From contig JAVBMX010000010.1 of NCBI GenBank assembly GCA_031551885.1, positions 1,083-65,082 of the forward strand: 64,000 nt of DNA. Direction: 5' to 3'. Each line of letters starts with the position of its first letter. The first letter of the stretch is position 1. The notes under the pieces are model-generated. The model saw nothing but the letters and a program-made list of their open reading frames with translations. It was not told the DNA's origin and did not search any database. Position numbers and translations under genes: made by a program. Positions 6,501-57,479 of the stretch are shown here, in pieces. The stretch comes from Desulfovibrio sp. (GTDB lineage: Bacteria; Desulfobacterota; Desulfovibrionia; Desulfovibrionales; Desulfovibrionaceae).

Positions 6501-6524
6501 CGCGAATCCCCCTCACCCGTACCC

Positions 6525-7951: not shown

Positions 7952-7964
7952 CACTCAGCGTGCT

Positions 7965-8519: not shown

Positions 8520-8565
8520 CGTTATGCTTCAAGGAACAGGAGAGCAATTTCAAGGTTTCTTTGAT

Positions 8566-42243: not shown

Positions 42244-42366
42244 CCTGCCTCACACCGAGACGCGGGCGGCACCTGCACCCCCATTGTCGGCAAGTCGGCG
42301 TGAAATGCCGGCTTGCCGACATATGAGGGGGGGTGGGGTGCCGTCCGCGTCTCGGTGTGAGGCAGG
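42244..42366. repeat. 123-bp nested palindrome containing a family-B core
   Basis: 30-bp arms CCTGCCTCACACCGAGACGCGGGCGGCACC / GGTGCCGTCCGCGTCTCGGTGTGAGGCAGG (1 mismatch); inner TGTCGGCAAG...CTTGCCGACA. A GGGGCTCCGCCCC REP half also lies at ~42158..42170. Confidence 0.85.
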
Positions 42367-42430: not shown

Positions 42431-42772
42431 TTATCCTTTGAATTGATCGTAGGCGTCCAAGATTCGCGAGGAGTAGACCAGGGCCGCCCCGGCGTTCAAC
42501 TCCACCGCCACGGTCAACGCTTCCAGAACTTCCTCGCGGGTGGCGCCCTGTTTCACGGCTTCAGCCACATGCACGGCGATGCAGGTGTCGCAACGCGTCG
42601 TGGCGGCGACCGCCAGAGCGATCAGCTCACGAACTTTGGGGCCCAGCACGTTCCGCGTAGCGGACCCTTTGCCCATGCCCACATAGCCCTGCATCAGCTC
42701 GGGGTTGCCTTTGGCCAGCGTGCCGATGGCGGCCGCTCCCTTGCCCAAAAAATCTTTCCAGTCTTGCAGCAT
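42431..42772 (-). CDS. Carboxymuconolactone decarboxylase / AhpD-like protein
   Basis: RELIALAVAATTRCDTCIAVH CxxC motif; GATREEVLEAL; GGAGGA RBS. Confidence 0.9.
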   Translation of the reverse strand: MLQDWKDFLGKGAAAIGTLAKGNPELMQGYVGMGKGSATRNVLGPKVRELIALAVAATTRCDTCIAVHVAEAVKQGATREEVLEALTVAVELNAGAALVYSSRILDAYDQFKG

Positions 42773-42978
42773 ACGATTCCTCCACGGTTGGGGTGCACGT
42801 TCGGCAAATCCATTCAGCCGTCTTGACCCCATCGACGGGCGAAGTCAAGCGCGTAAGACCACGCGGACAGGGTGTTTGCCTCATTGTCTTATTTTTTGCC
42901 AAGGCATTGATGCAGCACCTTCCGCCAAAGCCCGACACCTGTTGAGGCGATTGTTTCTGGCCGTGCTTTCGTCGCCGC

Positions 42979-43007
42979 AAAAAAGCCCGGCGGGCGCCGG
43001 GCTTTTT
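42979..43007 (-). terminator. Terminator closing the virion-gene operon
   Basis: A6-GCCCGGCG/CGCCGGGC-T5, 11 nt after the last module stop. Confidence 0.8.
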
Positions 43008-43017: not shown

Positions 43018-43353
43018 TCATTTTCCCCAATAAAACCAGCCACCAAGCCTTACACCCAGCCAGAAAACCCACGGCACATGCGCCCGAACCCACCAGGGAC
43101 GGCCTCGTTTGCGCAGGTTTGCCGCGATGCAACGGCGCAGGATGCCGTCCGCGAAGCACCGATCCCGCGCCTCTTCCCAGAGGTGGCGGAGGAAGGAGCG
43201 CCCGTTGCGCGCTCCGCCCTGCTCATAAAACAGATCGTGCTCGTCGCAGCAGCCGGTAAACGCGAGACGTCGGCCTTCCCCGGCCAGGCGGATATATTTG
43301 TTCCACCACCGGGCCAGGGAGTCCATGCCGCCGGAACAGCCATTTGCGCTCAT
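43018..43353 (-). CDS. Phospholipase A2-like small protein (putative)
   Basis: NGCSGG...GCCDEHDLFYEQGG...FADGILRRC...GVRLGG resembles the prokaryotic sPLA2 His-Asp signature; no signal peptide. Confidence 0.55.
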   Translation of the reverse strand: MSANGCSGGMDSLARWWNKYIRLAGEGRRLAFTGCCDEHDLFYEQGGARNGRSFLRHLWEEARDRCFADGILRRCIAANLRKRGRPWWVRAHVPWVFWLGVRLGGWFYWGK

Positions 43354-43985
43354 TACCATCCCTCCGGCACTTGGAAGGCCGTCGGGTATGCCGTTACCGC
43401 CTCGACGGTCGAAAGCGCCGAAACATCCGCATACATTTTCTGCTGTTGCCCGGTAAGGGAAGCATAAAGCAGCCGCCACTGCCCGGCGTTGGCCAACACC
43501 TTGGCGGCCATGTCGGCCACGGCTTCACCCCTGCCGCGAATCTGCACCAGCAGCGACAACACCGGGGCGAGCGCTTCCGAAGCGCCCCCCGGGTCGGCCA
43601 GAACCGCCCGGGCTTCGGCTTCCTGAATCGGCCAGCCTTCGCGTTCGGCCGCCGGGTAGACGGCTTCGATGGGAGCGAACGCGGCCTGATACGCGGCCAT
43701 CACGGCCGCAAGTTTGGCGGCTTTGGCCTCTTCCAGGGTGAGCGGCCGTTCGACCTTGGTTTCCAGACGCCTCTTTTCCGCTTCCCAGAGCGCGAGATAC
43801 GGCGCGACGACCTCGGTATATTCCTCGGCCGAGAGCGTGCGGTTGGGACAATCCGTAAACTCCATGTGCCCCGAGTCTCCACGCCACTGCAGGGCATGCA
43901 GGTTTTCCGGGGCGATAAAATCAACGTTCAGGCTTACACCGTCAACGATGACGGCCTTATCCTCGGGTATGACTGAGATGTGCAT
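43353..43985 (-). CDS. Tail fibre assembly/chaperone-like protein
   Basis: Directly after the fibre; ALQWRGDSGHMEF, and YPAAEREGWPIQEAEARA typical of fibre chaperones. Confidence 0.7.
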   Translation of the reverse strand: MHISVIPEDKAVIVDGVSLNVDFIAPENLHALQWRGDSGHMEFTDCPNRTLSAEEYTEVVAPYLALWEAEKRRLETKVERPLTLEEAKAAKLAAVMAAYQAAFAPIEAVYPAAEREGWPIQEAEARAVLADPGGASEALAPVLSLLVQIRGRGEAVADMAAKVLANAGQWRLLYASLTGQQQKMYADVSALSTVEAVTAYPTAFQVPEGW

Positions 43986-44009
43986 AAAATCTCCTCGGCG
44001 GCCGCCTGG

Positions 44010-45242
44010 TTACAGTTTCATAATGAAGCACAGGGCGTAGTACGACGGTGTAAGGTCGTGTTCGTGCGGCTGGGAACCGCCGACCGCCCCTGTGGTCGAT
44101 CCTGTGGCCCCGTTGTACCCCCCGCCGGTCGTGCCGCCGCCATACTGCGCACTGTACCCCGGCGCGGTATAGCCGTGCCCGTGGTTGGGCATCTGACTCA
44201 GCGTCAATGTCGTTGCCCCGGTTTTTTTCGAGCCGCCGGTTGTTCCCGGCGTGACCGTGCCGCCCGCGCCGAGAATAAACCGATCAACGAGATTCGGCGT
44301 GCCGTTCGTTCCGTCGCACAGCGCCCAACCGGACGGCACGGTCGCCGCCGCGCCGCTCCACATCACGATGCCGCCCGCGGGGAATCCGGCAGGAATGGCC
44401 CCGACGGCCGCGCCGATGGCCGCCTTCACCCCGGCCGGAGTCGTGGCCTTACCCGCCTCGGTTCCGGCCACGGTCTCCGCCGTTGAAGCAAAGCGCACTT
44501 CGGGAAAATTTTCCCACCCATAGGCGGTCCCGGCCGCGTTCGTTCGATACACCTGCCCGGCCGTGCCTCCTGCCGGAACCAAGCCCAAAGAAGCCGGGGA
44601 AGCGACACCCGCGCCGCCGGCGCTTTGAGCCGCTCGTTCCGCCCACTCCCGGGCGTTCGCCGCCTCCACGCCCGCCTGTTCGGCTGCCGATTCCGCCGCC
44701 GCGAGTTTCGCTTCCGCCTCTTCGACTTTTTCCTCCACCGCACCCCGAAGTGAGGCGGCGACGGCGGCTTCGTTCGCCGAGTCGGCGGCAGCCTTCACGG
44801 CGGTCGCGCGGGCATCAAGCAGGGTTTCGCGCAACTCTTCCGGGGTTCCCGCGTCGCCGTCGGCCAGTTGAATGCTCCGGCGCTGCCGCTCTTTCAGTTG
44901 CAGGCACATAAGGGTGAGCTTGTCCAGACAGTGTTCCAGCACTTCGGCATCCAGAACGCCGTTGTTGCGGAAATCCGTTTCCTGGGTAAAGGGCTGATCC
45001 GGGAAAATGGTCAGCCCCCAGTCTTCGGGCACAGCGGCGTGCACCGTGCCGCCGGCGTGTTCCGACGAGACGGTGACGGTGTAGTCCAGACCGCAGGTCA
45101 AACGATTTTCCGCACCCGACGGTTCGGTCACAACCACGCCCAGATCTTCGCCCTGCAGAAAAGGAAAGCCCACGGGCCAGTCCGTCTGCGCCCCGCCGCC
45201 GATATACCGTTCACGAATAATTTCTCCGGAACTGATGGTCAT
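44010..45242 (-). CDS. Tail fibre protein (T7 gp17-like N-terminus, coiled coil, collar domain, HxH tip)
   Basis: RYIGGGAQTDWPVGFPFL...GLDYTV anchor; PAGGIVMWSG...GWALCDGTNGTPNLVDRFILGAG collar; MPNHGH, PHEH; YYALCFIMKL. Confidence 0.85.
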   Translation of the reverse strand: MTISSGEIIRERYIGGGAQTDWPVGFPFLQGEDLGVVVTEPSGAENRLTCGLDYTVTVSSEHAGGTVHAAVPEDWGLTIFPDQPFTQETDFRNNGVLDAEVLEHCLDKLTLMCLQLKERQRRSIQLADGDAGTPEELRETLLDARATAVKAAADSANEAAVAASLRGAVEEKVEEAEAKLAAAESAAEQAGVEAANAREWAERAAQSAGGAGVASPASLGLVPAGGTAGQVYRTNAAGTAYGWENFPEVRFASTAETVAGTEAGKATTPAGVKAAIGAAVGAIPAGFPAGGIVMWSGAAATVPSGWALCDGTNGTPNLVDRFILGAGGTVTPGTTGGSKKTGATTLTLSQMPNHGHGYTAPGYSAQYGGGTTGGGYNGATGSTTGAVGGSQPHEHDLTPSYYALCFIMKL

Positions 45243-45795
45243 GCCGTTCCCCTTTGCGTGTTTGCGGAAAAATCGCCCGCCCCGCCCCGCGCCGCAAGGC
45301 CGCCCGCGCTTTTCCCAAAGATTGAAGCTGCGCCAACACCGCCTCGGCGGTCGCCTTGCGCAGTTCGGGTTTCGGATTCCCGGAAAGGATCCCGGTCAAC
45401 CGGGATATGTGCCCGGCAACATCCGCCTGTCGCCGCCGCAGGGTTTCTTCCCGCCGCGCCTCACGTTTTTGCGCCTCAAGCGCCTCGTGCTCCAAGGCAA
45501 AAGCCTCGACCGAGGCGCTCAGGTGTTCTTCGGCCTCGGCCCGGGTATCATCGTCCGGCGCTCCGGCCAGCACGGAGCGGAGAAAACCCGCGTCGGGCCG
45601 CCGGGGGACGCCGCCCCCGCCTTGCCCGGCCCCACCTGCGCCGGACTGTTCCAGAAAATGCTCCATGGCCGAATCAACCTTGTGCGCCAAATCCAGGGCT
45701 GTGGAATTCCGATCCCCGCGCGCCTTTTGAGAAGCGATGGTCGGGGCGCCCTGAAACAACGGCCTGCCTTCACCGGCCGGTATACGTATGGACAT
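45211..45795 (-). CDS. Short or truncated internal-virion (ejection)-like protein; possibly a gene remnant
   Basis: AGGAGG RBS; MSIRIP start; Ala/Gln/Glu-rich helical sequence; occupies the slot of the normally very large gp15/gp16-like genes; overlaps the fibre start by 32 nt. Confidence 0.5.
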   Translation of the reverse strand: MSIRIPAGEGRPLFQGAPTIASQKARGDRNSTALDLAHKVDSAMEHFLEQSGAGGAGQGGGGVPRRPDAGFLRSVLAGAPDDDTRAEAEEHLSASVEAFALEHEALEAQKREARREETLRRRQADVAGHISRLTGILSGNPKPELRKATAEAVLAQLQSLGKARAALRRGAGRAIFPQTRKGERHDHQFRRNYS

Positions 45796-45927
45796 GTCTC
45801 CTCCTGAGAACAATTTCACGTTGAAATTGCCTTTGAAGCCCTCTTGCCGGCGGACTTCTGAACGGGACCGCCTATTCATGCGGAGCCGTGGCTAAAACCG
45901 ACTCCGAACAGTGTTGACACGAGATGA

Positions 45928-46116
45928 TTTTTTTGTTCTCCGGCAAGGAGGATAAGCCTTTTATGGAGGGAGTGTACTTTGGCGGTACTCGACCGGCTCA
46001 TTCCCCAGGAGGGGAATCGACGCCGGAGGTTCCCCCGACGGCGCCCCGAAGGGGCGAGGCGCAAGAAGCGCCGAGTCAATAAAAGGCGAAGCCTGACGCC
46101 GCCGGGGGCAAAAAAA
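45928..46116 (+). repeat. Family-C palindromic element with a family-A element nested inside (45995..46079)
   Basis: Arms TTTTTTGTTCTCCGGCAAGGAGG ... CCTGACGCCGCCGGGGGCAAAAAAA and GCCTTTTAT/ATAAAAGGC; GTAC..GTAC palindrome. Confidence 0.8.
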
Positions 46117-46134
46117 CGCTCGTAGCGGCACCGT

Positions 46135-46656
46135 CTAGGAAAACAGGCCGGCAACACTGCCGATGGCGGGGGAAAAATGCTCAAAGGCGTCGAATCCTTT
46201 TTCAAGGGTCGTGCGCCGATCCCGGCCCGCCTCGGCCTGGGATTTCGCCTTGGACTGCAACAGCGAAGACTCGTAGCGCAGATTGCTGTTTTGGTATTGG
46301 GTTTCTTCATCCACGGCGAACAGGTCTTCGGCTCTGCGTCGGGCCGAATCCACCAGCACATCCAGGGCCGAGCCGGTGTCCAGTTCCACCCCGCGCGCCG
46401 CCAGAAGCGATCGCGAAGCCCCGTCGCGGGCCGCGTATTCGCGGGCGCGGTCGCGCTTGGCTTTGTCCGCATCGTAAGCATTTTTCCGAATCTGATGGTC
46501 TTTGAGCGCCGCCTGATGCTCGGTCATGGCCGCCGCGTTCTCCGCCTCACGCTGCGCGGCTTCGCGGTCCGCTTCCGCCCGGGTGAACTCGGTGACCGAA
46601 CGGGCGATGCCGAACGCCCCTCCCATAAGAGAGAGCGGATCAAAACTCATGCACAT
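46135..46656 (-). CDS. Internal virion protein (T7 gp14-like)
   Basis: MCMSFDPLSLMGGA, Ala/Gln/Arg-rich helix, LAARGVELDTGSALDVL; AAAAGGAGG RBS. Confidence 0.7.
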   Translation of the reverse strand: MCMSFDPLSLMGGAFGIARSVTEFTRAEADREAAQREAENAAAMTEHQAALKDHQIRKNAYDADKAKRDRAREYAARDGASRSLLAARGVELDTGSALDVLVDSARRRAEDLFAVDEETQYQNSNLRYESSLLQSKAKSQAEAGRDRRTTLEKGFDAFEHFSPAIGSVAGLFS

Positions 46657-47207
46657 GGAGACCTCCTTTTGTTGAAGTGGATAAAAAACAATCGCGCGTC
46701 GCCGTCCTCGCCGTTCGGCTCCGCCACCGGAAACGCGGCCGGTTTCAGGGTGAACCCCAAACGTTGCAGAAATCGGCTGTTGCGCCCGTCGCCCTCTTGT
46801 TCCAAGAGAAAGTTGGCCAAGCCCGAGAAACGCGCCCGCTGCAACGGCAACAGCAACCGCAGACACCACGCCGCCACGCGCGGAACCGCATCGAGGGCCG
46901 GCACGCCGACCATCCAAGGGCTCCCCCAGGGAAGAGCCTCGGGAACCGGCCGCGTCTCTTCCAACGCAACCACCCCGCCGACGGCCAGGGTTTCCCCCGT
47001 GACCTCATGAACCAAGGCGTACCGAAAATCGGACCGGGCAAAACTCCGCTCAAGGCGCTCCGCAACCGAGAGCCCTCCGCTGGTGAGGCGTTCGAGCGTC
47101 TCGGCTTCATGGCGATCGCTCGGCCGCAAATCACGACCGACGGCCGCAAGATGCTCAGGGCCGGCGGCGACCAGGGCGAACCCGTGGAAACGGGCGAGCG
47201 CGCTCAC
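46647..47207 (-). CDS. T7 gp13-like / GNAT-fold virion-associated protein
   Basis: DLRPSDRHEA, LAVGGV, GSPWMVG, SRFLQRLGF; located after tube B. Confidence 0.7.
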   Translation of the reverse strand: MSALARFHGFALVAAGPEHLAAVGRDLRPSDRHEAETLERLTSGGLSVAERLERSFARSDFRYALVHEVTGETLAVGGVVALEETRPVPEALPWGSPWMVGVPALDAVPRVAAWCLRLLLPLQRARFSGLANFLLEQEGDGRNSRFLQRLGFTLKPAAFPVAEPNGEDGDARLFFIHFNKRRSPCA

Positions 47208-49306
47208 AGTTCCCCCACTTCCAGTTCGTGAGCAACGGCCATCAAGGTGAAGGGCAAGGGATCATCCTGGCGGAAGTAGACCCCGCCTTCGATGGAGGCG
47301 TCGGAGTCGATGAGCATGGAGCAATCGCCGCTGAACAATGACAAAGCCTTGCCCATTTCGTGCGGAATGCGGCGGAAAAGCACGTCCCGCAAATGCTCCG
47401 CATCCGGGCCGACCTTGCAGCCGAGGGTCCGATACAGCCGGAACCGCACCCGGCCGACCCTGCGGGTCATGCCCAGGGCCGCGCCCTGGGCTTCGGCCAG
47501 CTCCGAGGCCATAGGCGCGATGTCGGAGACGTACCCCAAGCCAACATGGATGGCCGACGCCGGGGTCTTCAGGGCGACCGCGCCGTTTGTCACCACCTGG
47601 GGCGGGTGCACCCAGCCGTCGGCCAGAATCTGGACCTCCTTGCCTTCCAGATGCCCCAGACCGGAAAGCCGGGTGGTCGGCGGCCCCTGGTAGGAAAGGC
47701 CGGAATCCACAAAGAACGCCGCTTCGGCCTTGGGCACGCTCAAGGGCGCGTCAAAGGGCGGGTCCATGCGCTCCAGGGTACGGACGGTCTTCCAATTGCC
47801 GGTGAGGGGATCGCGGCAGTCGCGCCGCACCACGAACCAGGCTTCGTCATGTCCGGTTGACGGAATTACGGTCACGGACTCCACCCGCCCGGCCGTATCG
47901 TGCCGGTGCCAGGCCGCAACCTCGTGTTCCTTGATCAAGGTCAACGCGGCCAGGGTGCCGTCGTCGAGCACGCACCAAAGCACCGAATGCGGGCCTGCCT
48001 GCCAGGACCAATCCACAATGCGGCGCTCGCGAAAAATGTGCTCGGCCAGAATGGTCATGTCCGTACCGCTGAAACTGTCGGAATCCAGGAAGTAGCGAAA
48101 CTCCCGCACCACCTTGCCCCCGCGCTGCACGTAGAGGACCGTGTCGCCCACGGTCAGGGCGGGCAGATCGGCCGACCCCCAGGAGCTGTGGCGTTGCGCC
48201 TCGCACGAAAGAGCGGAAAACGGCTCGCCCCCCGCGCCGGAAAGGGTCCATTCGCCGTCTACCGTGCCGATCAACAGCTTGCCGGCCGGCATCATCCAGC
48301 GCACGGCGTTGACCCGGTCGGCCGCGAGGGTCACGGTGCAGGCGTCGTCGCTTTGCAACGGGTAGGAAACATTCAGGTTGTCGTAGTTGCCCGTGCGCCC
48401 GGCCCAGATGGTCTGTGGAGCCCTATCGGACGCCGCGAAACATAGACGCTGTTGATAGAACTGCACCGCGGCCGGGTAAGCCCCGTCGCCGTCGAAGGGG
48501 TCGCGGGCTTCAGGAACGCCGCAGGCGTAATCGGCCGTCTGGCCGCGATCCACATACGACATCCCCACGGATCGCCCGACCAGGCCGAAACTGCCCGACC
48601 CGCCGCCGCCGCGAAACACGCGGTATTCCCGCGCTTCCGGCACGGCCTGCCAGGTCAGGGTCACGTAATTGGACGTGTTCAGGGTCGCAGCCGCCGTGCA
48701 CAGGGCTTCCTGCGAAGGCAGGCTTTCCTCTTCCGAATCCGGAGCCACGGCGGTGACCACATAGGCGTAGCTTCGTTCGGCCGCGCCGGTGGGCGTGGCG
48801 ACCACGTTTTCAGGCGCGGCGACACAGGGACCGAAACGCATGGTTTCCAAGCGCCAGTCGGCGTGGCCGTAACGCATCAGCTTACAAGGCGGCATATTCC
48901 GGGACACCAGATACATGACGTCGCCGGAACGGCAGTGGCGCAGGTTCCAAATGTGCTCGCCGTCGAACGGAGTCGCCAGGGCAAACGGTTGAGCGGAGGC
49001 GTCCAAAACAAGGCCTCCGTTGTGCCAGACCCGCAGGCCGAGGTGGAAGAACTCCAGCACGTAGGCCTGTTCCTCATTGAACACGAACGGAACAAGGCGC
49101 ACCGGGCGGGCGGCCTCGCTCTGCACGGCCGCCTCGCCCATAAAGCGCAGGCCGGGACGCCGGAACACCGCGCCGTGGGGGGTGCAGAGCATGTTGCGCA
49201 GCACCCGACAGCCGGTGCCGTAGCGCCCCTGGTCCATGCGCGCGCCCATGAAGGGCGACAGCTCGCCGCTGTTGAAGCTTGTTTGAACGATGGTGGTGCG
49301 GGCCAT
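47204..49306 (-). CDS. Tail tubular protein B (T7 gp12-like nozzle)
   Basis: QTSFNSGELSP, G.VFRRPGLRF, YPAAVQFYQQRL, AWHRHDTAG, FVDSGLSY, GLGHLEGKEVQILADG; 700 aa, intact. Confidence 0.88.
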   Translation of the reverse strand: MARTTIVQTSFNSGELSPFMGARMDQGRYGTGCRVLRNMLCTPHGAVFRRPGLRFMGEAAVQSEAARPVRLVPFVFNEEQAYVLEFFHLGLRVWHNGGLVLDASAQPFALATPFDGEHIWNLRHCRSGDVMYLVSRNMPPCKLMRYGHADWRLETMRFGPCVAAPENVVATPTGAAERSYAYVVTAVAPDSEEESLPSQEALCTAAATLNTSNYVTLTWQAVPEAREYRVFRGGGGSGSFGLVGRSVGMSYVDRGQTADYACGVPEARDPFDGDGAYPAAVQFYQQRLCFAASDRAPQTIWAGRTGNYDNLNVSYPLQSDDACTVTLAADRVNAVRWMMPAGKLLIGTVDGEWTLSGAGGEPFSALSCEAQRHSSWGSADLPALTVGDTVLYVQRGGKVVREFRYFLDSDSFSGTDMTILAEHIFRERRIVDWSWQAGPHSVLWCVLDDGTLAALTLIKEHEVAAWHRHDTAGRVESVTVIPSTGHDEAWFVVRRDCRDPLTGNWKTVRTLERMDPPFDAPLSVPKAEAAFFVDSGLSYQGPPTTRLSGLGHLEGKEVQILADGWVHPPQVVTNGAVALKTPASAIHVGLGYVSDIAPMASELAEAQGAALGMTRRVGRVRFRLYRTLGCKVGPDAEHLRDVLFRRIPHEMGKALSLFSGDCSMLIDSDASIEGGVYFRQDDPLPFTLMAVAHELEVGEL

Positions 49307-49309
49307 ACG

Positions 49310-49912
49310 CTACCTCACCGCCAGCCAGGGGTCTTCGCCGTAGCGCGCGGATATCTCGGCCGAACCGTCCTCAACGGCGTCGGCCGTTTTGGCCGCTTCA
49401 AGAGCCTCCTGGGAACGCCGGGTCATGACGTCCTCCATGCGGGCGCTGTTCAGCAGGGGCACGGCCAGGGCCGCCGCCAGTCTGCGGGCCAGGGCTTCAG
49501 CGAAAAGCGGCGGGTAACGGGAGGGCTCGTCCAGGGCTACGGTCAGCAGGGCACAGGCGGGGGCCGCGTCGGTCAGAAGCACTCCCCCGGCCCGCAGGCT
49601 GTACGGCCTTTCCGGGTCAAGCCGGCGCACGGCCAGGCAATCAACGGGCAGGCGGTAGGCCAGGGCGAACGTTTCACCCTCTCCGGCCGGACCAAGGGGC
49701 GCGAGCGAGAGCCGTTTACAGGCAAAACTCCAAGCGTGGGAGGCAAGCAACTCATTGCGGGCCTCCGGGTAGGCCCTGGCGCACAATTCCGCCTCGCGCC
49801 CGGCCTGGGCGAACGAAAGGATCTGGGCCGCGCCGAGATGCCGCAGGGCCTTGTTGCAGATGGCGACCTTGCTTTGGATGCCGCCGCTGTGAATGGAAAA
49901 TGCGGAGCTCAT
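49310..49912 (-). CDS. Tail tubular protein A (T7 gp11-like adaptor)
   Basis: ICNKALRHLG, LLASHAWSFA, AYRLPVDCL, FAEALARRLAAALA, AKTADA. Confidence 0.88.
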   Translation of the reverse strand: MSSAFSIHSGGIQSKVAICNKALRHLGAAQILSFAQAGREAELCARAYPEARNELLASHAWSFACKRLSLAPLGPAGEGETFALAYRLPVDCLAVRRLDPERPYSLRAGGVLLTDAAPACALLTVALDEPSRYPPLFAEALARRLAAALAVPLLNSARMEDVMTRRSQEALEAAKTADAVEDGSAEISARYGEDPWLAVR

Positions 49913-50085
49913 TTCCCGCCTCCTTCCGGTTCAAGCGCTCGACGGGCGGTTTCGAGCAATTTATAAAGAACGGGCAGGGGCAAAGCCGGAGCGACGGCAA
50001 TGCCGAGGGCCGTGAGCGCCGCCGTTACGGCCGCCCGGCTGAAGCGTTGCTCTTCCCGCCGGAGGGCAATGGGATCATCGGCCAT
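49909..50085 (-). CDS. Small hypothetical protein (58 aa) with one hydrophobic segment
   Basis: GAAGGAG RBS; MADDPIALRREEQRFSRAAVTAALTALGIAVAPALPLPVLYKLL...; overlaps the tube A start. Confidence 0.55.
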   Translation of the reverse strand: MADDPIALRREEQRFSRAAVTAALTALGIAVAPALPLPVLYKLLETARRALEPEGGGK

Positions 50086-50201
50086 GGGTTCTCCTTCCGA
50101 GTCGGTTTCAAGGTGTAAGCGTCCGCGCGCATGCGCGCGGGCCGGCAGGTACATCGCACGGCCGCCGGGCTTTCCAAACGAGCGCGTCGAGCCCGCGCGG
50201 G

Positions 50202-50232
50202 GGGAGCGCCGGATTCCGAACCCGGCGCTCCC
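50202..50232 (-). other. 11-bp hairpin between head and tail genes (stabiliser or attenuator)
   Basis: GGGAGCGCCGG...CCGGCGCTCCC immediately after the cement gene stop. Confidence 0.45.
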
Positions 50233-50239
50233 TTGGCGA

Positions 50240-50641
50240 TTACCGGGGCAGGTATTGGAAGAACACGTCCACCGCGCCGGAGGCCGAGGCGTCATCCGTG
50301 CCGAGCACGACCCGCACGTAGCGGCGGCAGTCCGAAGGCAGCGGAATTCTGCCCAGGATCGCGCCGGTGTCGCGGGTGAGGACGGAGGCTCCGGCCATCA
50401 GTTTGAAGGTCAACGGCAGCGCCGTGAGGGCGGCGGCATCGTCGCCGTCTTCCAGAATTACGGTCAGGCTTTTGCCGGCCGCGATGGTCACGGGGGAAAC
50501 GGCTTTGACCACGGCTTCGGCCGCGCCCATCATGGAACCCGCCCGCTGGGGCCCGCCGTTGCCGGCGGTCTGCGTGTTTTTGGGCAGGGTCTGATTTTGG
50601 GCCAAGGCCTCACCGTGAATGCGAAGCTGATGATCGTACAT
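50240..50641 (-). CDS. Capsid cement/decoration protein (Bbp16-like)
   Basis: MYDHQL...ALAQ, RIPLP..CRRYVRV; follows the capsid gene. Confidence 0.75.
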   Translation of the reverse strand: MYDHQLRIHGEALAQNQTLPKNTQTAGNGGPQRAGSMMGAAEAVVKAVSPVTIAAGKSLTVILEDGDDAAALTALPLTFKLMAGASVLTRDTGAILGRIPLPSDCRRYVRVVLGTDDASASGAVDVFFQYLPR

Positions 50642-50663
50642 GCGCGTTCCTTTGCGGTTGCGG

Positions 50664-51578
50664 TTACAGGACGACCTTTTTCTCGGCGCCGTCTTTGAAG
50701 TTGTAGGAGGTGATGATCTCGATGCCGTTCCAGTGGCTGATGCGCCGGTCCAGTTCCTTGGAGTCCGGAGTGATGTGCAGGGCCGTCTGCTTGTAGCGGA
50801 ACAGCATGTTGCGCACCTTTTCGTGCATGAACAGGTAGGTGCTGCCGGAACCGGCCCGCACCGAGGCCAGCAGATCGTCGATCATGGCTTCCGTGGGCTG
50901 CTTCTGGGCGCTGATGTTGACCAGCGAGGCCACGGAGTTTCGGCCGGCGATCTGCAACCCGAGGTAGGCCTTCAGGCGCATGCCGTAGACCAGAATGCCC
51001 TGGTGCTTGCCCGAGGGGGCCTTGTACAGCGCGCCGTCGTTGATGCCTGCGGAATCCAGCAGCGTACCCTTGACGAAGCACTCGGGGGAGTAAAGGCCAC
51101 AGGTCTCACCCGAGATGAAGCGCACGGCCAGAATGCTGTAGCAGCCGTCGGCGGTCGCGCCGCAATCCACAGCCGTCTTGTTCTTCAGCGAGTAAGCTCG
51201 GAAGTTGTCGTACAGGATGCGCTCTTCCGCGCTCATGCCGGACTTGCGCAGCACCTTGGGCAGTTTGCGGGAAAAGTAGGATTCCTTGCCGCCGAAAAGC
51301 TTGGCCGTGTCTTCCGGGCATTCGATCTCCCCGCCGAGGATGGAAAGGTCCACCTTGCGCAGGTTGCCGGAAACATCCACGGCGGGCAGGGGGCCGTTCA
51401 TTTCCACCCAGCCGGCACCCTGGATTTCATCCACTTCCTCATACATGTTCCACAGGCCGTGGCTGGCCTTTTCAAAAGGGATGACGGCCAGGACGGGGGC
51501 CTCTTCGGTCAGTTGGTCCACCTGCTCCAGTTGCTGAACCGCGAACTTGGTGGACAGTTCCTTCAACGTGCTTCCCAT
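50664..51578 (-). CDS. Major capsid protein (HK97 fold, Bbp17-like)
   Basis: TLKEL...QLTEEAPVLAVIPFE, WVEMNGPLP, DLSILGGEIE, WNGIEIITS; position between scaffold and cement; AAGGAG RBS. Confidence 0.8.
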   Translation of the reverse strand: MGSTLKELSTKFAVQQLEQVDQLTEEAPVLAVIPFEKASHGLWNMYEEVDEIQGAGWVEMNGPLPAVDVSGNLRKVDLSILGGEIECPEDTAKLFGGKESYFSRKLPKVLRKSGMSAEERILYDNFRAYSLKNKTAVDCGATADGCYSILAVRFISGETCGLYSPECFVKGTLLDSAGINDGALYKAPSGKHQGILVYGMRLKAYLGLQIAGRNSVASLVNISAQKQPTEAMIDDLLASVRAGSGSTYLFMHEKVRNMLFRYKQTALHITPDSKELDRRISHWNGIEIITSYNFKDGAEKKVVL

Positions 51579-51613
51579 TGCTTTGCTTTCTCCTTGTTAC
51601 AGGTTGAGGTGGT

Positions 51614-51739
51614 TAAGGCGGTCCGGTTTGGCGTGATACTGCGTCAGGCCGCGCTTTTTGTTCCGGGGCAGGACCGAAGAGTCCAGCCCCATCGCAAAAA
51701 GCTTGCCTTCCTTGTCTGACGTCAAACTGAACCGCCCTA
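51614..51739 (-). repeat. Family-C palindromic element
   Basis: The reverse complement GGTTCAGTTTGACGTCAGACAAGGAAGG...GGGGCTGGAC..GTCCTGCCCC...CCTGACGCAGTATCACG aligns closely along its length with 55107..55224. Confidence 0.88.
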
Positions 51740-51757
51740 CTTAGGGACAGGCAGCTA

Positions 51758-51849
51758 CCCCCTCATCTGTCGGCAAATCCGTGCAAAGCACGGTTTTGCC
51801 GACAATGGGGGTGCAGGGGCCGCCCACCCTGAGCGAAGCGAGGGTGGGC
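51758..51849. repeat. Family-B palindrome plus GCCCACCCT hairpin
   Basis: CCCCTCATCTGTCGGCAAATCCGTGC-AAA-GCACGGTTTTGCCGACAATGGGGGTGCAGG; inverted homologue of 42268..42345. Confidence 0.85.
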
Positions 51850-51979
51850 AAAGTATCGTAAGCCCCCTGCCAGGGGGACTGGAGTGCGGCCCGCGTTGCG
51901 GCAAGACAGCCTTGTTTACACCGCGGGAGTGCTCCCGGCTGATAGACCGACGCAGTCCTGTTTGCGTCCCCCAACCCGT

Positions 51980-52558
51980 TCAACGATTCTTGAACACCAC
52001 TCGGCGGAGGTATTCCTCGGTGCTCATGGGAGCTTTGGGAGCCGCCGCGCCGGGGGCCGTGCCGATGCTGTCCTCGGCCATGTCCCGCCCGAGCAGGGCC
52101 ATGAGTTCGCCGAAGGCCGGGTGGTTGCCCAAGCCGGCGTTGACCAGGGGCATGAGCCGACCGCCCATGCGTTTGTCCAGGGCGAAACAGGTCCGTCGGG
52201 CCTTGGAAAGCTGTTCGTCGTAGCGGGAACCCCACTTGGCCCGCAGCTCGGCTTCGCAGCGCTCCTGCATCTGCTCGGCCAGACCGTTTTGCTCGGTCAT
52301 ATAAAAGCTCACGGCTTTGGCGGCCTGTTCGGGGCTCAAGCCCGCGCTGCCGCAAAACTGTTTGAAACGACCCAGCAGGGCCTGATCCACGTGTTCGGCG
52401 GGAAAACCTTCCGGAAGAACGGCATCATAGGCCTGCGGCTCGATTCCGCCGGCCGCGGAGGCAAGGCCGAGATCTTCCGATGCAAAGGGTCCGCCCGCCG
52501 CAGAGGACGGATTTTCCCCTCGGGCCGGCGACGCGGTCGCGTACATTTCCTGACTCAT
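51980..52558 (-). CDS. Capsid scaffolding protein
   Basis: AGGAGG RBS; YDAVLPEGF, AGLSPEQA, LRAKWG, GLGNHP...LLGRDMAED; located upstream of the capsid gene. Confidence 0.78.
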   Translation of the reverse strand: MSQEMYATASPARGENPSSAAGGPFASEDLGLASAAGGIEPQAYDAVLPEGFPAEHVDQALLGRFKQFCGSAGLSPEQAAKAVSFYMTEQNGLAEQMQERCEAELRAKWGSRYDEQLSKARRTCFALDKRMGGRLMPLVNAGLGNHPAFGELMALLGRDMAEDSIGTAPGAAAPKAPMSTEEYLRRVVFKNR

Positions 52559-52569
52559 GAAACCTCCTG

Positions 52570-52962
52570 TTACGGGTTGGGAGTGGATTGCCCGGCACAA
52601 CGCCGCATTCCGGCAAGGTGGATGCGTAAAAACCCCACCGGATCGGCGACGACCGCCTCGGCCATGCGTTCGCGCGCATAGTCGAAAAGAGCCGCCGCGG
52701 CATAAATTTGCGGAGCGGGAAGACTCACGGCCCCATAGGCCTGGGCCTCATCAAGCCAGCGGCGCAAAACCCGCAATCCCGCCCCGCCGGGCATGCGCAA
52801 GACCGCGCGCAGGTCTTCGAGGTACCGGGCGCGGATACGTTCCGGCGCGCCCTCTTCACCGCCCTTGTCTTCCTGGGCGGCGACGGATTCCGCCGACAAA
52901 TCAAGGGGAAGCAGCAGCTCCCGCAGGGCTTCCGTCGTTTCGCGGGCGTCGGAATCGGTCAT
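52570..52962 (-). CDS. Bbp19-like hypothetical virion morphogenesis protein
   Basis: DLRAVL..PGG..LRVLRRWL; position between portal and scaffold. Confidence 0.7.
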   Translation of the reverse strand: MTDSDARETTEALRELLLPLDLSAESVAAQEDKGGEEGAPERIRARYLEDLRAVLRMPGGAGLRVLRRWLDEAQAYGAVSLPAPQIYAAAALFDYARERMAEAVVADPVGFLRIHLAGMRRCAGQSTPNP

Positions 52963-54581
52963 GCCGGACCTCCTTGCGCGGCGTCGGGATCCGTGGCCCG
53001 CAGGAACCCTTGCAGGGCCTCGGCCAGATCCGTGCCGCCGGCTTCCCCCCCGGCCGGCCGCGCCGGGGCGCGCAGGGCCGCGACCTCGGCGTCGGACCGC
53101 ACCAGACGCGCGGGCACGCCGGAAATGGCTGCCAACTCGTCCACCGCTTGATCGAAGTCGATTTTATCGAGCACGCCGGGAGACACGGCGGCCATGGAGG
53201 AAACCTCGGCCGCGAGCCGGCGCACCGCCTCGGCCCCGCCCCGGCGCTGGGCCTGGGCCAGAGACGAGACGTATTCCACCTTCAGCTCGCCGCCCCGCAG
53301 GGCAAGCGGCGCCTCCGGCAACAGTCCGGCCCGCGAGGCCAGCCCGAAGACCCGAACCAAGAGCGGATCAAGAATCTCGGTCTGGTGCCGCTCGATGACC
53401 GGCCCCAGCAGGAGCATCTTTTCCTCGCCGCGTTCGGCGATTTCGGTGGCCGTGATGTTCGAGCGCCCTTCTCCGGTGAACATCATGAACAAATCGTTAA
53501 AGAACCCTTCACGCACGGCCCGGCGCACGTCCTCAACCGTGCGGGCCATGGCCGAAAGATCCGGCGAGATCTGATAAAGAGGCCCGATGCCTTCGGGCTG
53601 ATGCGGGTTGACGTAGTTGATCGCGCCGGGGATGAGCGAAAGCCGCTGCTTGAATCCGGCCGGCACGCGCATGGGCGGGTTGACCATCTTGTGCACGGCC
53701 AAAAGCCGGCTGCGGGTCATCTCCTGAAGCATGCGCACGTCGGGCAGAATCTCCATGGCCGGGGAACGGCCGTAGATGTCGGCTCCGAGCACGTCCCAGC
53801 GGGCGCAGAGGAAAGGGAACTCCTCAAAACCGCCTTCGTGGAGCAGGCCTTCGGCTTCCTTGGCCTCCCAGACCAGAGAGGCATAGGGCATGTGCAGGTT
53901 GCCGAAGGCGGCCGGGTTGCGTTCCGGCCTGGGCATGACCAGGTGCATGACTTCCAGGGGCGTGTCGGGCTTTTCGCGCAGCAGGCGCTTGGTTCCCCGG
54001 CTCAGGGCCTCCTCGCCGAAAGCCGAAGCCAGTTGGCGCGGCGTCATCAGAATGCGCCGCAGCACCGTGTCCACCCTGCCCGCCGTGTCGCAGGCCCAGG
54101 CGAATTCGCCGCAGGTCGGGCAGGCGAAGCGCAGGTGGCGGTCCGGGTCGCTTTCCACATACAGGCAGGCCGAGCCGAACAGGGCCAGTTCCATGTACAT
54201 GGAGTGAACGGCCTGGTAGAAGTTGGAACCCGCCAACAGGCTGTAGAGGTTCTGCTCGACCACATCGAGCCAACGGCGTTCCGGGCCGGACTCCGCGTCG
54301 GCGTCGCCGCCGCGTTGCAGGCGGAACCACGGACGCGCCGGGCTGGTCAGGCCGCTGTGCAGACCGGCGGCCAGCACCCGGAGCGCCCGGCCGGCCGTGC
54401 CGTCGAGAATACGCTCGCGGCTTTCGGCCTCGTCGTTGCCGGTGGTTGGGCCGGCGTCAAAGCGGCCGCGCCAGGGGGCGATCCACAAGGCCGCTTCGCG
54501 CCAACGCGGCACCCAGTCTTTTTTTCGTTCTTCCAGGAGCCCGGCCAAACGGCGGGCCTCACGCAGGCGTGCGTCTTCCAT
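52959..54581 (-). CDS. Portal (head-tail connector) protein, T7 gp8/Bbp21-like
   Basis: LAAGLHSGLTSPARPWFRL, SNFYQAVH, LFGSA, RWDVLGADIYGRSPA, ITATEI.ER.EEK..LLGPVIER, VEYVSSLAQAQ; 540 aa, intact. Confidence 0.93.
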   Translation of the reverse strand: MEDARLREARRLAGLLEERKKDWVPRWREAALWIAPWRGRFDAGPTTGNDEAESRERILDGTAGRALRVLAAGLHSGLTSPARPWFRLQRGGDADAESGPERRWLDVVEQNLYSLLAGSNFYQAVHSMYMELALFGSACLYVESDPDRHLRFACPTCGEFAWACDTAGRVDTVLRRILMTPRQLASAFGEEALSRGTKRLLREKPDTPLEVMHLVMPRPERNPAAFGNLHMPYASLVWEAKEAEGLLHEGGFEEFPFLCARWDVLGADIYGRSPAMEILPDVRMLQEMTRSRLLAVHKMVNPPMRVPAGFKQRLSLIPGAINYVNPHQPEGIGPLYQISPDLSAMARTVEDVRRAVREGFFNDLFMMFTGEGRSNITATEIAERGEEKMLLLGPVIERHQTEILDPLLVRVFGLASRAGLLPEAPLALRGGELKVEYVSSLAQAQRRGGAEAVRRLAAEVSSMAAVSPGVLDKIDFDQAVDELAAISGVPARLVRSDAEVAALRAPARPAGGEAGGTDLAEALQGFLRATDPDAAQGGPA

Positions 54582-54582
54582 A

Positions 54583-54813
54583 CTATTGCCCCAGCAGGGT
54601 TTTGCGGGAAACGTCCGCTTGCGTGGTGTCGCCCAGGGTGCCGGTCAAAATGGTGGACTTGCGCCCGCCGGCCAAGGCGGCCGCTTTTTTGGCTTTGTCC
54701 GACGCGCGACGTACGGCGTCGGCCTCTTCTTCGCGCAGGGTCTCCGGCTCGGCCGGCAAAGGTGGGGGGGTATACTTTTCAGGTTTGTAGGATTTTCCGC
54801 CGCCGCCTCCCAT
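54583..54813 (-). CDS. Small phage protein typically preceding the portal
   Basis: AAAGGAGG RBS; MGGGGG...GRKSTILTG...KTLLGQ. Confidence 0.75.
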   Translation of the reverse strand: MGGGGGKSYKPEKYTPPPLPAEPETLREEEADAVRRASDKAKKAAALAGGRKSTILTGTLGDTTQADVSRKTLLGQ

Positions 54814-55093
54814 GGAAGCCTCCTTTGGTTGTGGTTGACGCAATCGACAATGCCCTCGGCGGGTTGCCCCGGGCGTGTGGAAGGGTCATACACCCGGCCT
54901 TTTGGGCAAAAACGACGGGAAAGGGGTGGGAAGGGGGCGGGCGGGTTGTCCCGTGCATGCCGGGCATATGCGGGCCGCTTTTACCGGCGTGCGGGCAAAC
55001 GGCAAAACAACAATAAAATTGCACTGTTATAAAAGCGACATAAAATATTGACAAAACGATTCGCCCGAGGTTTTCCAACCGAACTTTCGGCAT

Positions 55094-55232
55094 ATGGGAC
55101 GGTACCGGGGTCAGTTTGTCGTCAGACAAGGAAGGTGAGTTTTTCTGATGGGGGCTGGACTTCTTTAGTCCTGCCCCCGGAGGAAAAATGAAGCCTGACG
55201 CGGTATCACGGCGAACCGACCCCGGTACCCAT
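55094..55232 (+). repeat. Family-C rod-like palindromic element
   Basis: GGTACCGGGGTC / GACCCCGGTACC arms; CAAGGAAG...CCTGACG core; inverted homologue of 51614..51739. Confidence 0.85.
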
Positions 55233-55289: not shown

Positions 55290-57479
55290 ATGGGATACCC
55301 GCACGTGAGTAAACATATTCTGGAAAAGCGCCGTTTCGTTGAAAGTCTGAGCCCCGGCATGGAAGTCTCGGACCTGTTTCTCATCGCCGTCGCCCAGCAG
55401 GCGCAGGCCAAAAACGGCCCGTATTGGCGTCTGGAGTTCCGTGACGCCCACGGGAGCATCTCCGGCAAGATCTGGAGCCCGCAAAGTCAGAATTACCCGG
55501 AAATTTCCCCCGGCATCGCCCTGGTGACCGGACGGGTGACCAGCTACCGGGACCAGCCCGAGATCGCCGTGGATTCGATTCGGCCGCTCACGGCCGAGGA
55601 AAGCGCCGGCCTGGATCTTTCCCTGTTTATGCCGGCCGCCGCCCGTTCCCCTCACGATATGCTGAAAGACTTGGGCCGCCTCGCCGTCGGCGCTCTCTCG
55701 CATGACCCGTGGAAGCGCTTTGTGGCCGCCGTGCTGGCCGACCCGGAAATCGCCCAGGGCCTGCCCACGGCTCCGGCCGCGAAGGCCATGCATCACGCCT
55801 ACGTCGGCGGTCTGCTGGAGCACACGCTTTCGGTCTGTGGGCTGTGTATGCGCCTGTGCGACCACTACCCCGCCCTGGATCGGCAAACCCTGTTCGCCGG
55901 GGCGCTGTGTCATGATTTGGGCAAGATCTGGGAGCTGTCGCCCGGCCTGGTCGCGGAGTACACCACCCAAGGTCGGCTCATCGGGCATATGTCCATTGCC
56001 CTGGAACGCCTGGCCCCCCTGATGCGCGAAGCCGGACTTGAGCCGGAATACGCGGAGCATCTGCGCCACCTCATCTTGAGCCACCACGGCACGCGGGAGT
56101 TCGGTTCCCCGGTGTTGCCCGCCACGGCCGAGGCTTTGGCCCTGCACTATGCCGACAACGTGGACGCCAAGCTCAACCAGATTGAATCCACTCTGAACAC
56201 GGCGTTGGGTGAAGCCAAAACAGGCTGGTCGGCCTATGTGCCCGCCTTGGAACGCACCCTGTACCGCGCCCCCAAAAGCCCAGAGCCCGAAAGCGCGACG
56301 GAAGCCGAAACCGAGACCGAACCCGACTTTGAGTTCGGGCCGCTTTTGTACGACGACCGGCTCTGTGAAGAGTTCGACCCGAACTTTCATCTGAACGACG
56401 TTTCCGATTTCCCGGAATTCCTTTTTGACGATTCGGACACCTTGCCGGAAAAAACCTTCCTGCCGGCGGAAGCGTCTTCGAAATCTCAAACAACGACCTC
56501 GTCCACGTCCACGAAGTCGGCGGAACCCTCCCCGCTCACCGGTGAGGCTGCGGCCCCCCCCGCCCCCAAGGCGGACGAACCGGTACCCTCCCCTTTGCCC
56601 GCGGAAGCGCAAGCCTCCGACACAACCGATTCCGGCACGGAAGCGGCGGCGTCCACCTCCCCTGCCGAACAATCGGAAGAGGTCTCGCCTGAGACAGGAT
56701 CCTCTTCCGATACAGCGAAGTCCGCCGAGGCATCCGCTCCCACAATGGAGGAGCCGGATACCCGCGAGGCTCCGGTTGCCGTGGCGAAGCCCTCGACTTC
56801 CCCCGTTGAGGCTGTGGTCGACGTCCCCATGACGGACACAGCCCCGGAAAAGGTCTCTTCCCTTGAAGCGGTGGAAGTTCCCGAGCACGCTTCCTCTTCC
56901 GCATCTGAACCGATGGATGCCGTGCCTCAGGAGGCTCCGGCGATTCCGGTCGCCCCGCTTGATGCCCAATCGTCCGAGACAGGCACAGAACCTTCCGCCG
57001 CCCCGATTGAGGCACAGTCCGAGACCGGTGCGGAGCCTTCCGCCGCAGCAGCAGCCGAAACTCCCCCGACTTCCGACGCGCCGGCTCAGGCCTCCTCTGA
57101 GGCGGGATCCCCAGACACTCCTCCCGCGCCCAAGAAAAAAAGAGCGCCCCGGGGCTCCCGGGCCAAAGCCGCCGCTGCCGCGGCAGCTTCCGCGCCTGTT
57201 GCCGAGGAGAAGCCGGCCGAATCCGTATCTTCCGATGTCCCGCCGGGCGAAGCGCCTTCTCCCGAAATGCAGGCGGACAACGAACTCTCACCCGATGTGG
57301 CGGCTTCGGCGACGACGCTTTCTGAACCAGCTCCTTCCCAGGCGGAAGCGCCCGCGACTGCCGGCGCCCAGGCCGATGCCTCGGCTTCCTCCGAATCCGG
57401 CGAGGATCCGGCGGCTTCCCCCGCGCCGAAAAAAAAGAAGGCGGCCCCGAAAATTGAATCCTTATCCCTGCTTGGCTGA
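55290..57479 (+). CDS. YhaM-family OB-fold/HD 3'-5' exoribonuclease with ~400-aa disordered C-terminal tail
   Basis: AKNGPYWRLEFRDAHGSISGKIW OB fold; MHHAYVGGLLEHT, LCHDLGKIWE, LIGH, SHHG, HYADNVDAK HD motifs. The start could be GTG 55305. Confidence 0.88.
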   Translation: MGYPHVSKHILEKRRFVESLSPGMEVSDLFLIAVAQQAQAKNGPYWRLEFRDAHGSISGKIWSPQSQNYPEISPGIALVTGRVTSYRDQPEIAVDSIRPLTAEESAGLDLSLFMPAAARSPHDMLKDLGRLAVGALSHDPWKRFVAAVLADPEIAQGLPTAPAAKAMHHAYVGGLLEHTLSVCGLCMRLCDHYPALDRQTLFAGALCHDLGKIWELSPGLVAEYTTQGRLIGHMSIALERLAPLMREAGLEPEYAEHLRHLILSHHGTREFGSPVLPATAEALALHYADNVDAKLNQIESTLNTALGEAKTGWSAYVPALERTLYRAPKSPEPESATEAETETEPDFEFGPLLYDDRLCEEFDPNFHLNDVSDFPEFLFDDSDTLPEKTFLPAEASSKSQTTTSSTSTKSAEPSPLTGEAAAPPAPKADEPVPSPLPAEAQASDTTDSGTEAAASTSPAEQSEEVSPETGSSSDTAKSAEASAPTMEEPDTREAPVAVAKPSTSPVEAVVDVPMTDTAPEKVSSLEAVEVPEHASSSASEPMDAVPQEAPAIPVAPLDAQSSETGTEPSAAPIEAQSETGAEPSAAAAAETPPTSDAPAQASSEAGSPDTPPAPKKKRAPRGSRAKAAAAAAASAPVAEEKPAESVSSDVPPGEAPSPEMQADNELSPDVAASATTLSEPAPSQAEAPATAGAQADASASSESGEDPAASPAPKKKKAAPKIESLSLLG

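Follow-up and report, generated by a model that had tools for sequence, protein, structure and literature searches.

The operon and its products

The stretch of DNA analysed here, called the window throughout, comprises 64,000 nucleotides of contig JAVBMX010000010.1 from a Desulfovibrio sp. genome assembly. Its minus strand carries, at positions 43018–54813, one 11.8-kb operon of 15 open reading frames (ORFs), all of them open and co-oriented (Table 1). Families were assigned by Pfam and PHROG profile searches of the window's proteins. The portal, scaffold, capsid, cement, tube A and B, gp13- and gp14-like, fibre and chaperone genes that an earlier note had named from the sequence were all confirmed, the cement gene by a weak match and the others by family or fold matches, and their order from portal to fibre matches that of Bordetella phage BPP-1. 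Together these products, with the gp13- and gp14-like proteins as two small internal components, are predicted to supply everything that the shell of a short-tailed virion requires. By gene content alone the particle is podovirus-like, both tail tubes being present and genes for a tape measure, a sheath or a major tail tube being absent.

The major capsid protein was recognised from its fold. By sequence its 304 residues gave a weak PHROG match, homologues carry PF20911, and a profile search against PDB sequences returned no match, so that fold comparison alone succeeded. An AlphaFold (AF2) model built from 30 homologues (pLDDT 82) was matched by Foldseek to the capsid proteins of Carin1 (8CJZ, E=4e-13), BPP-1 (3J4U, E=5e-13, TM 0.64) and epsilon15 (3J40); encapsulins were also matched in this search, at lower scores.

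Related loci are referred to by numbers preceded by L. The closest genome, Desulfovibrio sp. EPI_MAG_00170, carries locus L001, and dN/dS denotes the ratio of nonsynonymous to synonymous substitution rates.

Table 1. Features of the operon in the window, in the order of transcription
Feature	Position	Strand	Evidence and remarks
Promoter-like site TTGTCA-17 nt-TATAAC, sigma-70-like	55026..55054	-	about 210 nt upstream of first gene; by eye, putative
76-aa protein, always precedes portal	54583..54813	-	phrog_831; 83-91% conserved in L001; also in L002/L006
Portal, 540 aa	52959..54581	-	PF12236 E=2e-172; phrog_332 E=8e-138; dN/dS 0.13 vs L001
130-aa conserved protein, portal-scaffold interval	52570..52962	-	present in all related loci
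Scaffold-like protein, 192 aa	51980..52558	-	phrog_3742 E=3e-15; phrog_458 E=3e-11; position of BPP-1 bbp18
400-bp intergenic gap, scaffold-capsid, with host intergenic repeats 51680-51733 and 51780-51825	51579..51979	.	
Major capsid protein, 304 aa, BPP-1/epsilon15-type HK97 fold	50664..51578	-	fold match; dN/dS 0.095 vs L001
Cement/decoration candidate, 133 aa, Bbp16-like	50240..50641	-	PF21190 E=0.0026, below Pfam cut-off; phrog_427 weak
58-aa ORF, position of BPP-1 bbp15	49909..50085	-	58-aa gene also called in L001; 72% identity, dN/dS 0.19
Tail tubular protein A, 200 aa	49310..49912	-	phrog_394 E=2e-38; tblastn match from BPP-1 bbp14
Tail tubular protein B, 700 aa	47204..49306	-	phrog_376 E=7e-183; 33.5% identity over 100% of BPP-1 bbp13
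gp13-like internal virion protein, 186 aa	46647..47207	-	phrog_308 E=2e-9
gp14-like internal virion protein, 173 aa	46135..46656	-	PF24072 T7_gp14 E=5e-5; phrog_418 E=8e-10
Conserved protein of about 194-222 aa before fibre	45211..45879	-	probable start MSIRIP at 45795; aligns with 183-252 aa proteins of L001, L002, L088
Tail fibre, 410 aa	44010..45242	-	19 tail-fibre PHROGs; weak Collar domain match
Fibre-assembly/chaperone-like protein, 210 aa	43353..43985	-	phrog_2618 E=5e-16; phrog_4912 (tail fibre assembly) E=8e-4
Last gene, 113 aa	43018..43359	-	phrog_6098 E=3e-7; 74% conserved in L001; no Pfam match
Intrinsic terminator: A5, 7-bp GC stem, 4-nt loop, T6; GCCCGGC-GCCC-GCCGGGC	42979..43007	-	read from sequence

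The 130-aa protein encoded between portal and scaffold matched no Pfam or PHROG family, and the full viral contig L113 encodes a homologue (phmmer E=4e-15). The cement candidate keeps its length and position in all relatives, and its homologue in L087 weakly matches PF21190. No Pfam or PHROG family matched the protein encoded before the fibre; the idea that its 222 aa are a truncated gp15/16 was rejected, since it shows no similarity to the large ejection proteins of full viral contigs. The fibre combines a conserved N-terminal anchor with a divergent C-terminal half, and only about the first 140 aa align with the fibre of L001 (76%). The product of the last gene has a hydrophobic, Trp-rich C-terminus and contains the motif FTGCCDEHDLFY, which recalls the CC-x2-HD catalytic site of secreted phospholipases A2; this protein could be an entry or lysis factor.

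Shine–Dalgarno motifs are visible upstream of most operon genes and a terminator closes the operon, as the earlier note had stated. The terminator and the promoter-like site were both found by eye, and neither was listed by a scan for consensus promoters and terminators.

Missing modules and the host setting

Within the window, family searches and tblastn with BPP-1 proteins revealed no integrase, repressor, replication or lysis gene. Searches with tblastn likewise found no gene for the large terminase subunit (TerL), for the small subunit (TerS) or for the companion protein that follows TerL in relatives (see below). The 64 kb contain no tRNA gene, and a repeat search of the window found no direct repeats bracketing the module. 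The list of absent functions drawn up in the earlier note therefore holds across the whole window. In the 7 kb that follow tube B no ORF exceeds 461 aa, so that ejection proteins of the size of gp15/16 are absent. Probing the window and the related loci by tblastn with the TerL, integrase, polymerase, primase, helicase and large internal proteins of BPP-1 gave nothing relevant for the window's clade, and no integrase, excisionase, primase/replicase or att-like direct repeat was found within 10 kb in any annotated context of a relative.

The surroundings are those of a bacterial chromosome. One flank consists of genes for LpxK, RNase R, an SNase-like nuclease and a CMD protein, and the other of genes for an HD/OB protein, thymidylate kinase (tmk) and a LUD protein, which agrees with the placement between rnr/CMD and yhaM-tmk given earlier. 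The GC content at third codon positions resembles that of the flanks, in keeping with the host-like composition previously noted, and host intergenic repeats lie inside the module at 51680–51825 and 45806–46030. Contigs of the source metagenome, from an invertebrate gut, cover the module and both junctions at about 35x, the depth of the chromosome, and the operon is single-copy there. This depth makes it unlikely that the assembly has collapsed a full prophage, as had been a concern, or that a prophage was induced and replicating. Two joints in the metagenome, 40824→53966 and 40283→50161, have sides of 20 nt only and were treated as chance.

The repeats extend beyond the operon. One family of short palindromic intergenic repeats (core CCCCCATTGTCGGCAA) occurs at 4091–4157, 20103–20134, 42244–42366, 51780–51825 and 58988–59042, and a further pair, at 51680–51733 and 55108–55161, places copies in the scaffold–capsid gap and in the region upstream of the operon. 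Repeats I2, I4 and I5 of that gap have partners at 55108, 4126 and 42264. The palindromic repeats look like host repeats of the repetitive extragenic palindrome or miniature inverted-repeat transposable element (REP/MITE) type. The scaffold–capsid gap measures 400 bp in the window versus 166 bp in L001. Two more repeat copies, with partners at 6607/9582 and 25438, occupy the gap 45806–46030 between the gp14-like gene and the one that follows it. Metagenome contig depth spikes there to more than 1000x near 45928, and this repeat must therefore be very abundant in the community or the genome.

The two flanks differ in detail between the window and L001. A CMD-family gene (42431–42832, minus strand), which lies between the operon terminator and the SNase gene in the window, is absent there in L001, the difference being either an insertion in the window or a deletion in L001. 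The HD/OB-fold (YhaM-like) gene (55290–57479, plus strand) encodes 729 aa in the window versus 523 aa in L001, and the intergenic region between it and the operon spans 477 bp versus 186 bp, partly through repeat insertion.

Relatives, selection and the displaced terminase

Contexts for comparison were drawn from public assemblies, a scan of species-representative genomes and IMG/VR. The portal has many relatives in Desulfovibrionaceae. The capsid family is narrow: almost all of its 112 proteins come from genomes or metagenomes of Desulfovibrionaceae, and the window's capsid type found no match in 50,697 GenBank phage records. Some 30 loci with a capsid identity of at least 64% all share the same reduced layout. 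It begins with a small protein, portal, a 130–180 aa protein, scaffold, a 303–305 aa capsid, a 133-aa cement protein and a small ORF; tube A, the ~700-aa tube B, two or three proteins of 150–220 aa and the fibre follow, and then host genes. These loci come from genomes titled Desulfovibrio, Nitratidesulfovibrio, Halodesulfovibrio and Oleidesulfovibrio, with one metagenome-assembled genome (MAG) merely titled Pseudomonadota, and their GC content ranges from 45 to 72%. The IMG/VR entries of this clade are regions of 5–19 kb with one exception, a 32-kb contig.

Relatives further removed, with a capsid identity of no more than 54%, are found on viral contigs of 41–45 kb, where gp14 is followed by proteins of 550–1214 aa that match PHROGs for an 'internal virion protein with endolysin domain' and resemble BPP-1 bbp10/11 and T7 gp15/16. 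Because these distant relatives keep the large ejection proteins, the window's clade has lost the ejectosome, just as it has lost its replication, integration and lysis modules.

The operon has been under purifying selection. In L001 it occupies the same locus, between the HD–tmk–LUD genes and the SNase–RNase R genes. For all 14 operon genes that can be compared between the window and L001, dN/dS lies between 0.10 and 0.35 at a dS of 0.5–1.5 (0.095 for the capsid, 0.13 for the portal and 0.15 for tube B), and the flanking tmk, LUD, HD and SNase genes give 0.15–0.28 at a dS of 0.8–1.2. We conclude from the shared locus and the low ratios that the operon predates the split between the window and L001 and has been kept intact since. 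A second pair of species, D. subterraneus and D. mangrovi (L086 and L087), gave values of 0.015–0.26 for all element genes at a dS of about 0.6–2.2, with 0.03 at a dS of 1.4 for TerL. The comparison of synteny and dN/dS across relatives proposed in the earlier note is thus answered in favour of host maintenance.

The second pair belongs to a set of loci in which a host gene sits within the cluster. In D. subterraneus, D. mangrovi, the Halodesulfovibrio-labelled MAG SZUA-473 and two Halodesulfovibrio species, the order is TerL, companion, Na:Ala symporter, small protein, portal through fibre, and TetR; some genomes have a chemoreceptor gene ahead of TetR. This synteny spans species labelled as different genera, and the genes have diverged to similar degrees (identities of 76% for TetR, 75–76% for the symporter, 72–73% for TerL and 81–82% for the capsid). 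The pattern is one of co-divergence over a long period, with a host gene lodged inside the cluster. The symporter lies between the TerL–companion pair and the portal in at least five genomes (L086/L087/L014/L015/L018), and in D. cuneatus (L011/L088) a 47%-identical symporter and an alanine dehydrogenase are encoded upstream of the portal on the other strand. The vicinity of the symporter may be the ancestral insertion neighbourhood.

The TerL of this family is a protein of about 500–580 aa with a weak Terminase_6C match, always followed by a companion of 190–230 aa (for example at 3702–4268 in L086, 11739–12365 in L089 and 11675–12346 in L138). The companion also follows TerL in prophage-like relatives and accompanies the orphan TerLs. 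Searches of Pfam, PHROG and PDB sequences gave no match for it; an apparent GNAT-like resemblance to BPP-1 bbp24 was rejected because hhalign did not support it. TerL does not keep a fixed position relative to the operon: in L016 it immediately precedes the portal, and in L139 MotA/MotB separate the TerL–companion pair from the portal. No TerL lies within 7–10 kb upstream of the portal in the window, in L001, L006, L007 and D. cuneatus, or at any of the Nitratidesulfovibrio loci. An apparent gap in the TerL of L090 is probably an assembly artefact (19 N).

In three genomes with TerL-less operons, an orphan TerL–companion pair was found, either on a different contig or at a distance of more than 10 kb. 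In Nitratidesulfovibrio sp. HK-II (operon L008) the pair (L089) lies between DUF6627/peptidase C39 genes and DUF3298/Na-Ca exchanger/HSP90 genes. That of EPI_MAG_00239 (operon L006; pair L138) has rpsF-rpsR-rplI-dnaB and a ferredoxin gene upstream and cytochrome P460, CinA and aconitase genes on the other side, and that of EPI_MAG_00148 (operon L007; pair L140) follows ABC-transporter and rubredoxin genes. Synteny at the HK-II orphan locus extends to a second species, where TerL is 79% identical and its dN/dS equals that of the flanks. All three orphan TerLs retain intact ATPase motifs (AREH[YG]KS, VYDDV, GTRYH) and nuclease motifs, and in a neighbour-joining tree they fall within the clade formed by TerLs in physical linkage with the window's capsid type. 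Directly upstream, on the opposite strand, lie a DUF6627 gene in L089 and a gene for a Fer4 protein in L138; in L140 TerL is preceded on the same strand by an unannotated ORF, which at 503 aa is too large to be a short TerS.

On the evidence of these genomes, a split, multi-locus organisation can be regarded as demonstrated in the window's nearest sister lineages, whose portals are 70–71% and capsids 75–78% identical to those of the window. By extrapolation from these relatives, a distal TerL–companion pair is predicted in the window's own genome. The distal terminase proposed in the earlier note is in this way supported by the orphan pairs of three relatives, whereas the window's 64 kb contain none.

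The Nitratidesulfovibrio loci (L004 at 3143–9370, L008–L010, L092–L096) have a further feature, a conserved operon that lies next to the portal in divergent orientation. Besides a DUF3298-like protein and an esterase/lipase (phrog_789), its products comprise a 330-aa protein, a phrog_1544 protein, an 87-aa protein and a Terminase_2 small terminase; the Terminase_2 gene and the esterase are not found in the window. The orphan TerL locus, too, is bordered by a DUF3298 paralogue. In Nitratidesulfovibrio this divergent operon may provide the element with accessory or lysis functions.

Known systems, the favoured reading and its alternatives

The searchable literature yielded no description of this element family; its nearest counterparts are considered individually. 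The podophages BPP-1 (a Rauchvirus), epsilon15 and Carin1 share with the window the PF12236 portal, the HK97 capsid fold, tubes A and B and the gene order, and a relative's fibre carries an Mtd_N domain, a further link of BPP-1 type. BPP-1, however, is a 42.5-kb temperate phage with TerS and TerL beside the portal, which the window lacks. It also has internal proteins of 721 and 2052 aa, an endolysin, an integrase, a repressor, a replication module and a diversity-generating retroelement, none of which is present in the window. The element thus fails as a complete BPP-1/epsilon15-like virus; descent from such a phage, followed by maintenance in Desulfovibrionaceae hosts, would be the best explanation of the particle system.

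Some of the features by which a gene-transfer agent (GTA) is recognised are found here, namely chromosomal virion genes without replication, integration or lysogeny functions, purifying selection, and co-divergence with the flanks. The agent of Rhodobacter capsulatus, RcGTA (Rhodogtaviriformidae), likewise has a chromosomal, phage-derived head–tail operon lacking replication and integration modules. Like the window's family, it keeps essential functions at scattered loci, forming a multi-locus 'genome' (PMC5026251), and shows purifying selection and co-divergence with its host flanks. The two are nevertheless not homologous. RcGTA is siphovirus-like, with TerS–TerL inside its main cluster, whereas the window's family is podovirus-like and its TerL is displaced; the RcGTA capsid reached rank 49 in our fold search, a generic HK97-fold similarity only. 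Moreover, the function of RcGTA has been demonstrated and the window's system is known from its genes alone. RcGTA has no full apparatus for injecting DNA into the cytoplasm; it delivers DNA to the periplasm, and uptake functions of the recipient are needed.

FpGTA of Faecalibacterium prausnitzii, a candidate GTA spread over two loci and predicted to be podovirus-like (PMC12946183), resembles the window's family in its split loci, its podovirus-like character and its occurrence outside Alphaproteobacteria, a comparison made by description only and across phyla. For FpGTA, sequencing of capsid DNA provides evidence of packaging, and its loci include lysis genes; the window's element has neither.

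The Dd1 GTA of D. desulfuricans ATCC 27774, reportedly described by Rapp and Wall in 1987, shares with the window its host family, the short-tailed morphology expected from the genes and the proposed GTA lifestyle. We were nevertheless unable to uphold the 'Dd1-like' label of the earlier note. None of the 112 capsid homologues is named as a D. desulfuricans protein, and matches in D. desulfuricans MAGs belong to a different, prophage-like capsid type accompanied by an endolysin. The predicted Dd1 TerS, Ddes_0720, is encoded directly upstream of its TerL (PMC6854486). In the window's family, by contrast, no short TerS gene precedes TerL at L089, L138 or L140, and the window has no TerS. Dd1 itself has received only cursory characterisation, and its genes were never assigned experimentally (PMC11841831).

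Overall, we favour the view, with somewhat better than even confidence, that the operon is the structural part of a domesticated, multi-locus particle system derived from a podovirus and known at present through its genes, and that its most likely role is that of a GTA (viriform). In such a system host-controlled expression would yield procapsids, and a distal TerL would package DNA into them by the headful. Tails and fibres would then be attached and the particles released, with lysis, regulation and possibly TerS supplied from other loci. The packaged DNA would be host DNA, because there is no element-specific replication or packaging system. Adsorption would depend on the variable fibre tip, whose fast divergence fits the tracking of receptors. 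Delivery is predicted to reach the periplasm only, because the trans-envelope ejectosome of gp15/16 type has been lost, and the uptake machinery of the host would then take over. A survey of Desulfovibrio prophages has raised the possibility that 'degenerate' elements might be GTAs (PMC6006170). More tentatively, we suggest that an independent, podovirus-derived GTA family may be widespread in Desulfovibrionaceae, with a host-uncoupled TerL pair, periplasm-only delivery of host DNA and uptake by the recipient; the 11.8-kb operon might itself fit into one headful, which could explain its varied loci.

Several observations weigh against this reading. Among the closest Desulfovibrio MAGs the operon stands at three different loci (window/L001, L006 and L007), so that inheritance has not been simply vertical and either the element or its neighbourhood moves. 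Some genomes, such as that of Desulfovibrio sp. X2, carry two copies, and the fibre tip diverges fast, as in free phages. In L020 an unrelated TerL of the Terminase_6N type lies beside the portal, a phage-like mosaicism. The window offers 64 kb without a TerL, and we identified neither lysis genes nor a regulator. Finally, in a metatranscriptome from the same study contigs cover the operon patchily, at about the level of the flanks, and this signal could be DNA carry-over. Wastewater RNA runs contained 4–9% of the capsid words.

Of the alternatives, the one that survives best, unlikely as we judge it, is a host-maintained particle with a role other than DNA transfer, such as an empty or protein-loaded capsid that decoys phages or interferes with them, a killer particle or a compartment. 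Loss of the gp15/16 ejectosome would cripple classical DNA injection, the window has no TerL, and the lower-scoring fold matches to encapsulins point the same way. Conservation of the portal, tail tube, fibre and chaperone, however, implies cell targeting and a DNA channel, and TerL and its companion co-occur with the operon in those relatives where both could be checked. Since this pair clusters with capsid-linked TerLs and is under purifying selection even when unlinked, DNA packaging is implied.

We think it slightly more improbable that the operon is a helper-dependent element, that is, a satellite or defective transducing phage which makes its own virions, borrows terminase, replication and lysis from a BPP-1-like prophage and packs itself preferentially. 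The different loci in closely related species would suit such an element, as would the diversifying fibre tip and the paired copies, and related TerL families are abundant in Desulfovibrionaceae prophages. Phage satellites such as phage-inducible chromosomal islands (PICIs) and capsid-forming PICIs, however, have an integrase, att sites and a replication initiator of their own, none of which is present in the window or its annotated relatives. The matching TerL, moreover, is orphaned among ribosomal/dnaB or other host genes, not in a prophage; the order TerL–symporter–operon–TetR is conserved across genus labels; and the sequencing depth equals that of the chromosome.

The poorest prospect is a cryptic prophage remnant, in which a BPP-1-like prophage has lost its other modules and the structural genes have merely not decayed so far: the missing terminase, integrase, replication and lysis genes, the invasion of intergenic gaps by host repeats and the listing of such regions as short degenerate elements by prophage-prediction pipelines (PMC6006170) are as it would expect, yet all 15 of 15 ORFs are intact, dN/dS matches that of the host flanks, the identical reduced set with a capsid fixed at 303–305 aa recurs in about 30 loci across several genera, and the orphan TerLs keep their catalytic motifs under purifying selection. 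Independent decay would not converge on one gene set. The recurrent gene order, the dN/dS values, the orphan TerL pairs and the interleaved host genes thus all speak for the earlier proposal of a host-maintained particle system as opposed to random decay.

To our knowledge few GTA lineages have been described so far, and the well-studied ones are almost all alphaproteobacterial. Dd1, from 1987, is the GTA reported in sulfate reducers. The window's element is a strong candidate for a new, podovirus-derived family of GTA-like particles, and it bears the hallmarks of domestication: selfish modules lost, an orphan terminase among housekeeping genes, interleaved host genes and co-divergence with the flanks. 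Its carriers include cultured, genetically tractable strains of Nitratidesulfovibrio, Halodesulfovibrio and Desulfovibrio, and the question of a podovirus-like GTA in sulfate reducers, together with the genes behind it, is therefore directly testable. Halodesulfovibrio aestuarii DSM 17919, D. cuneatus DSM 11391, D. subterraneus, D. mangrovi and Nitratidesulfovibrio sp. HK-II are cultured examples. The family also amounts to a natural experiment on which podovirus losses, that of the ejectosome among them, are compatible with retention by the host, and it is relevant to gene flow among the sulfate reducers of gut and sediment.

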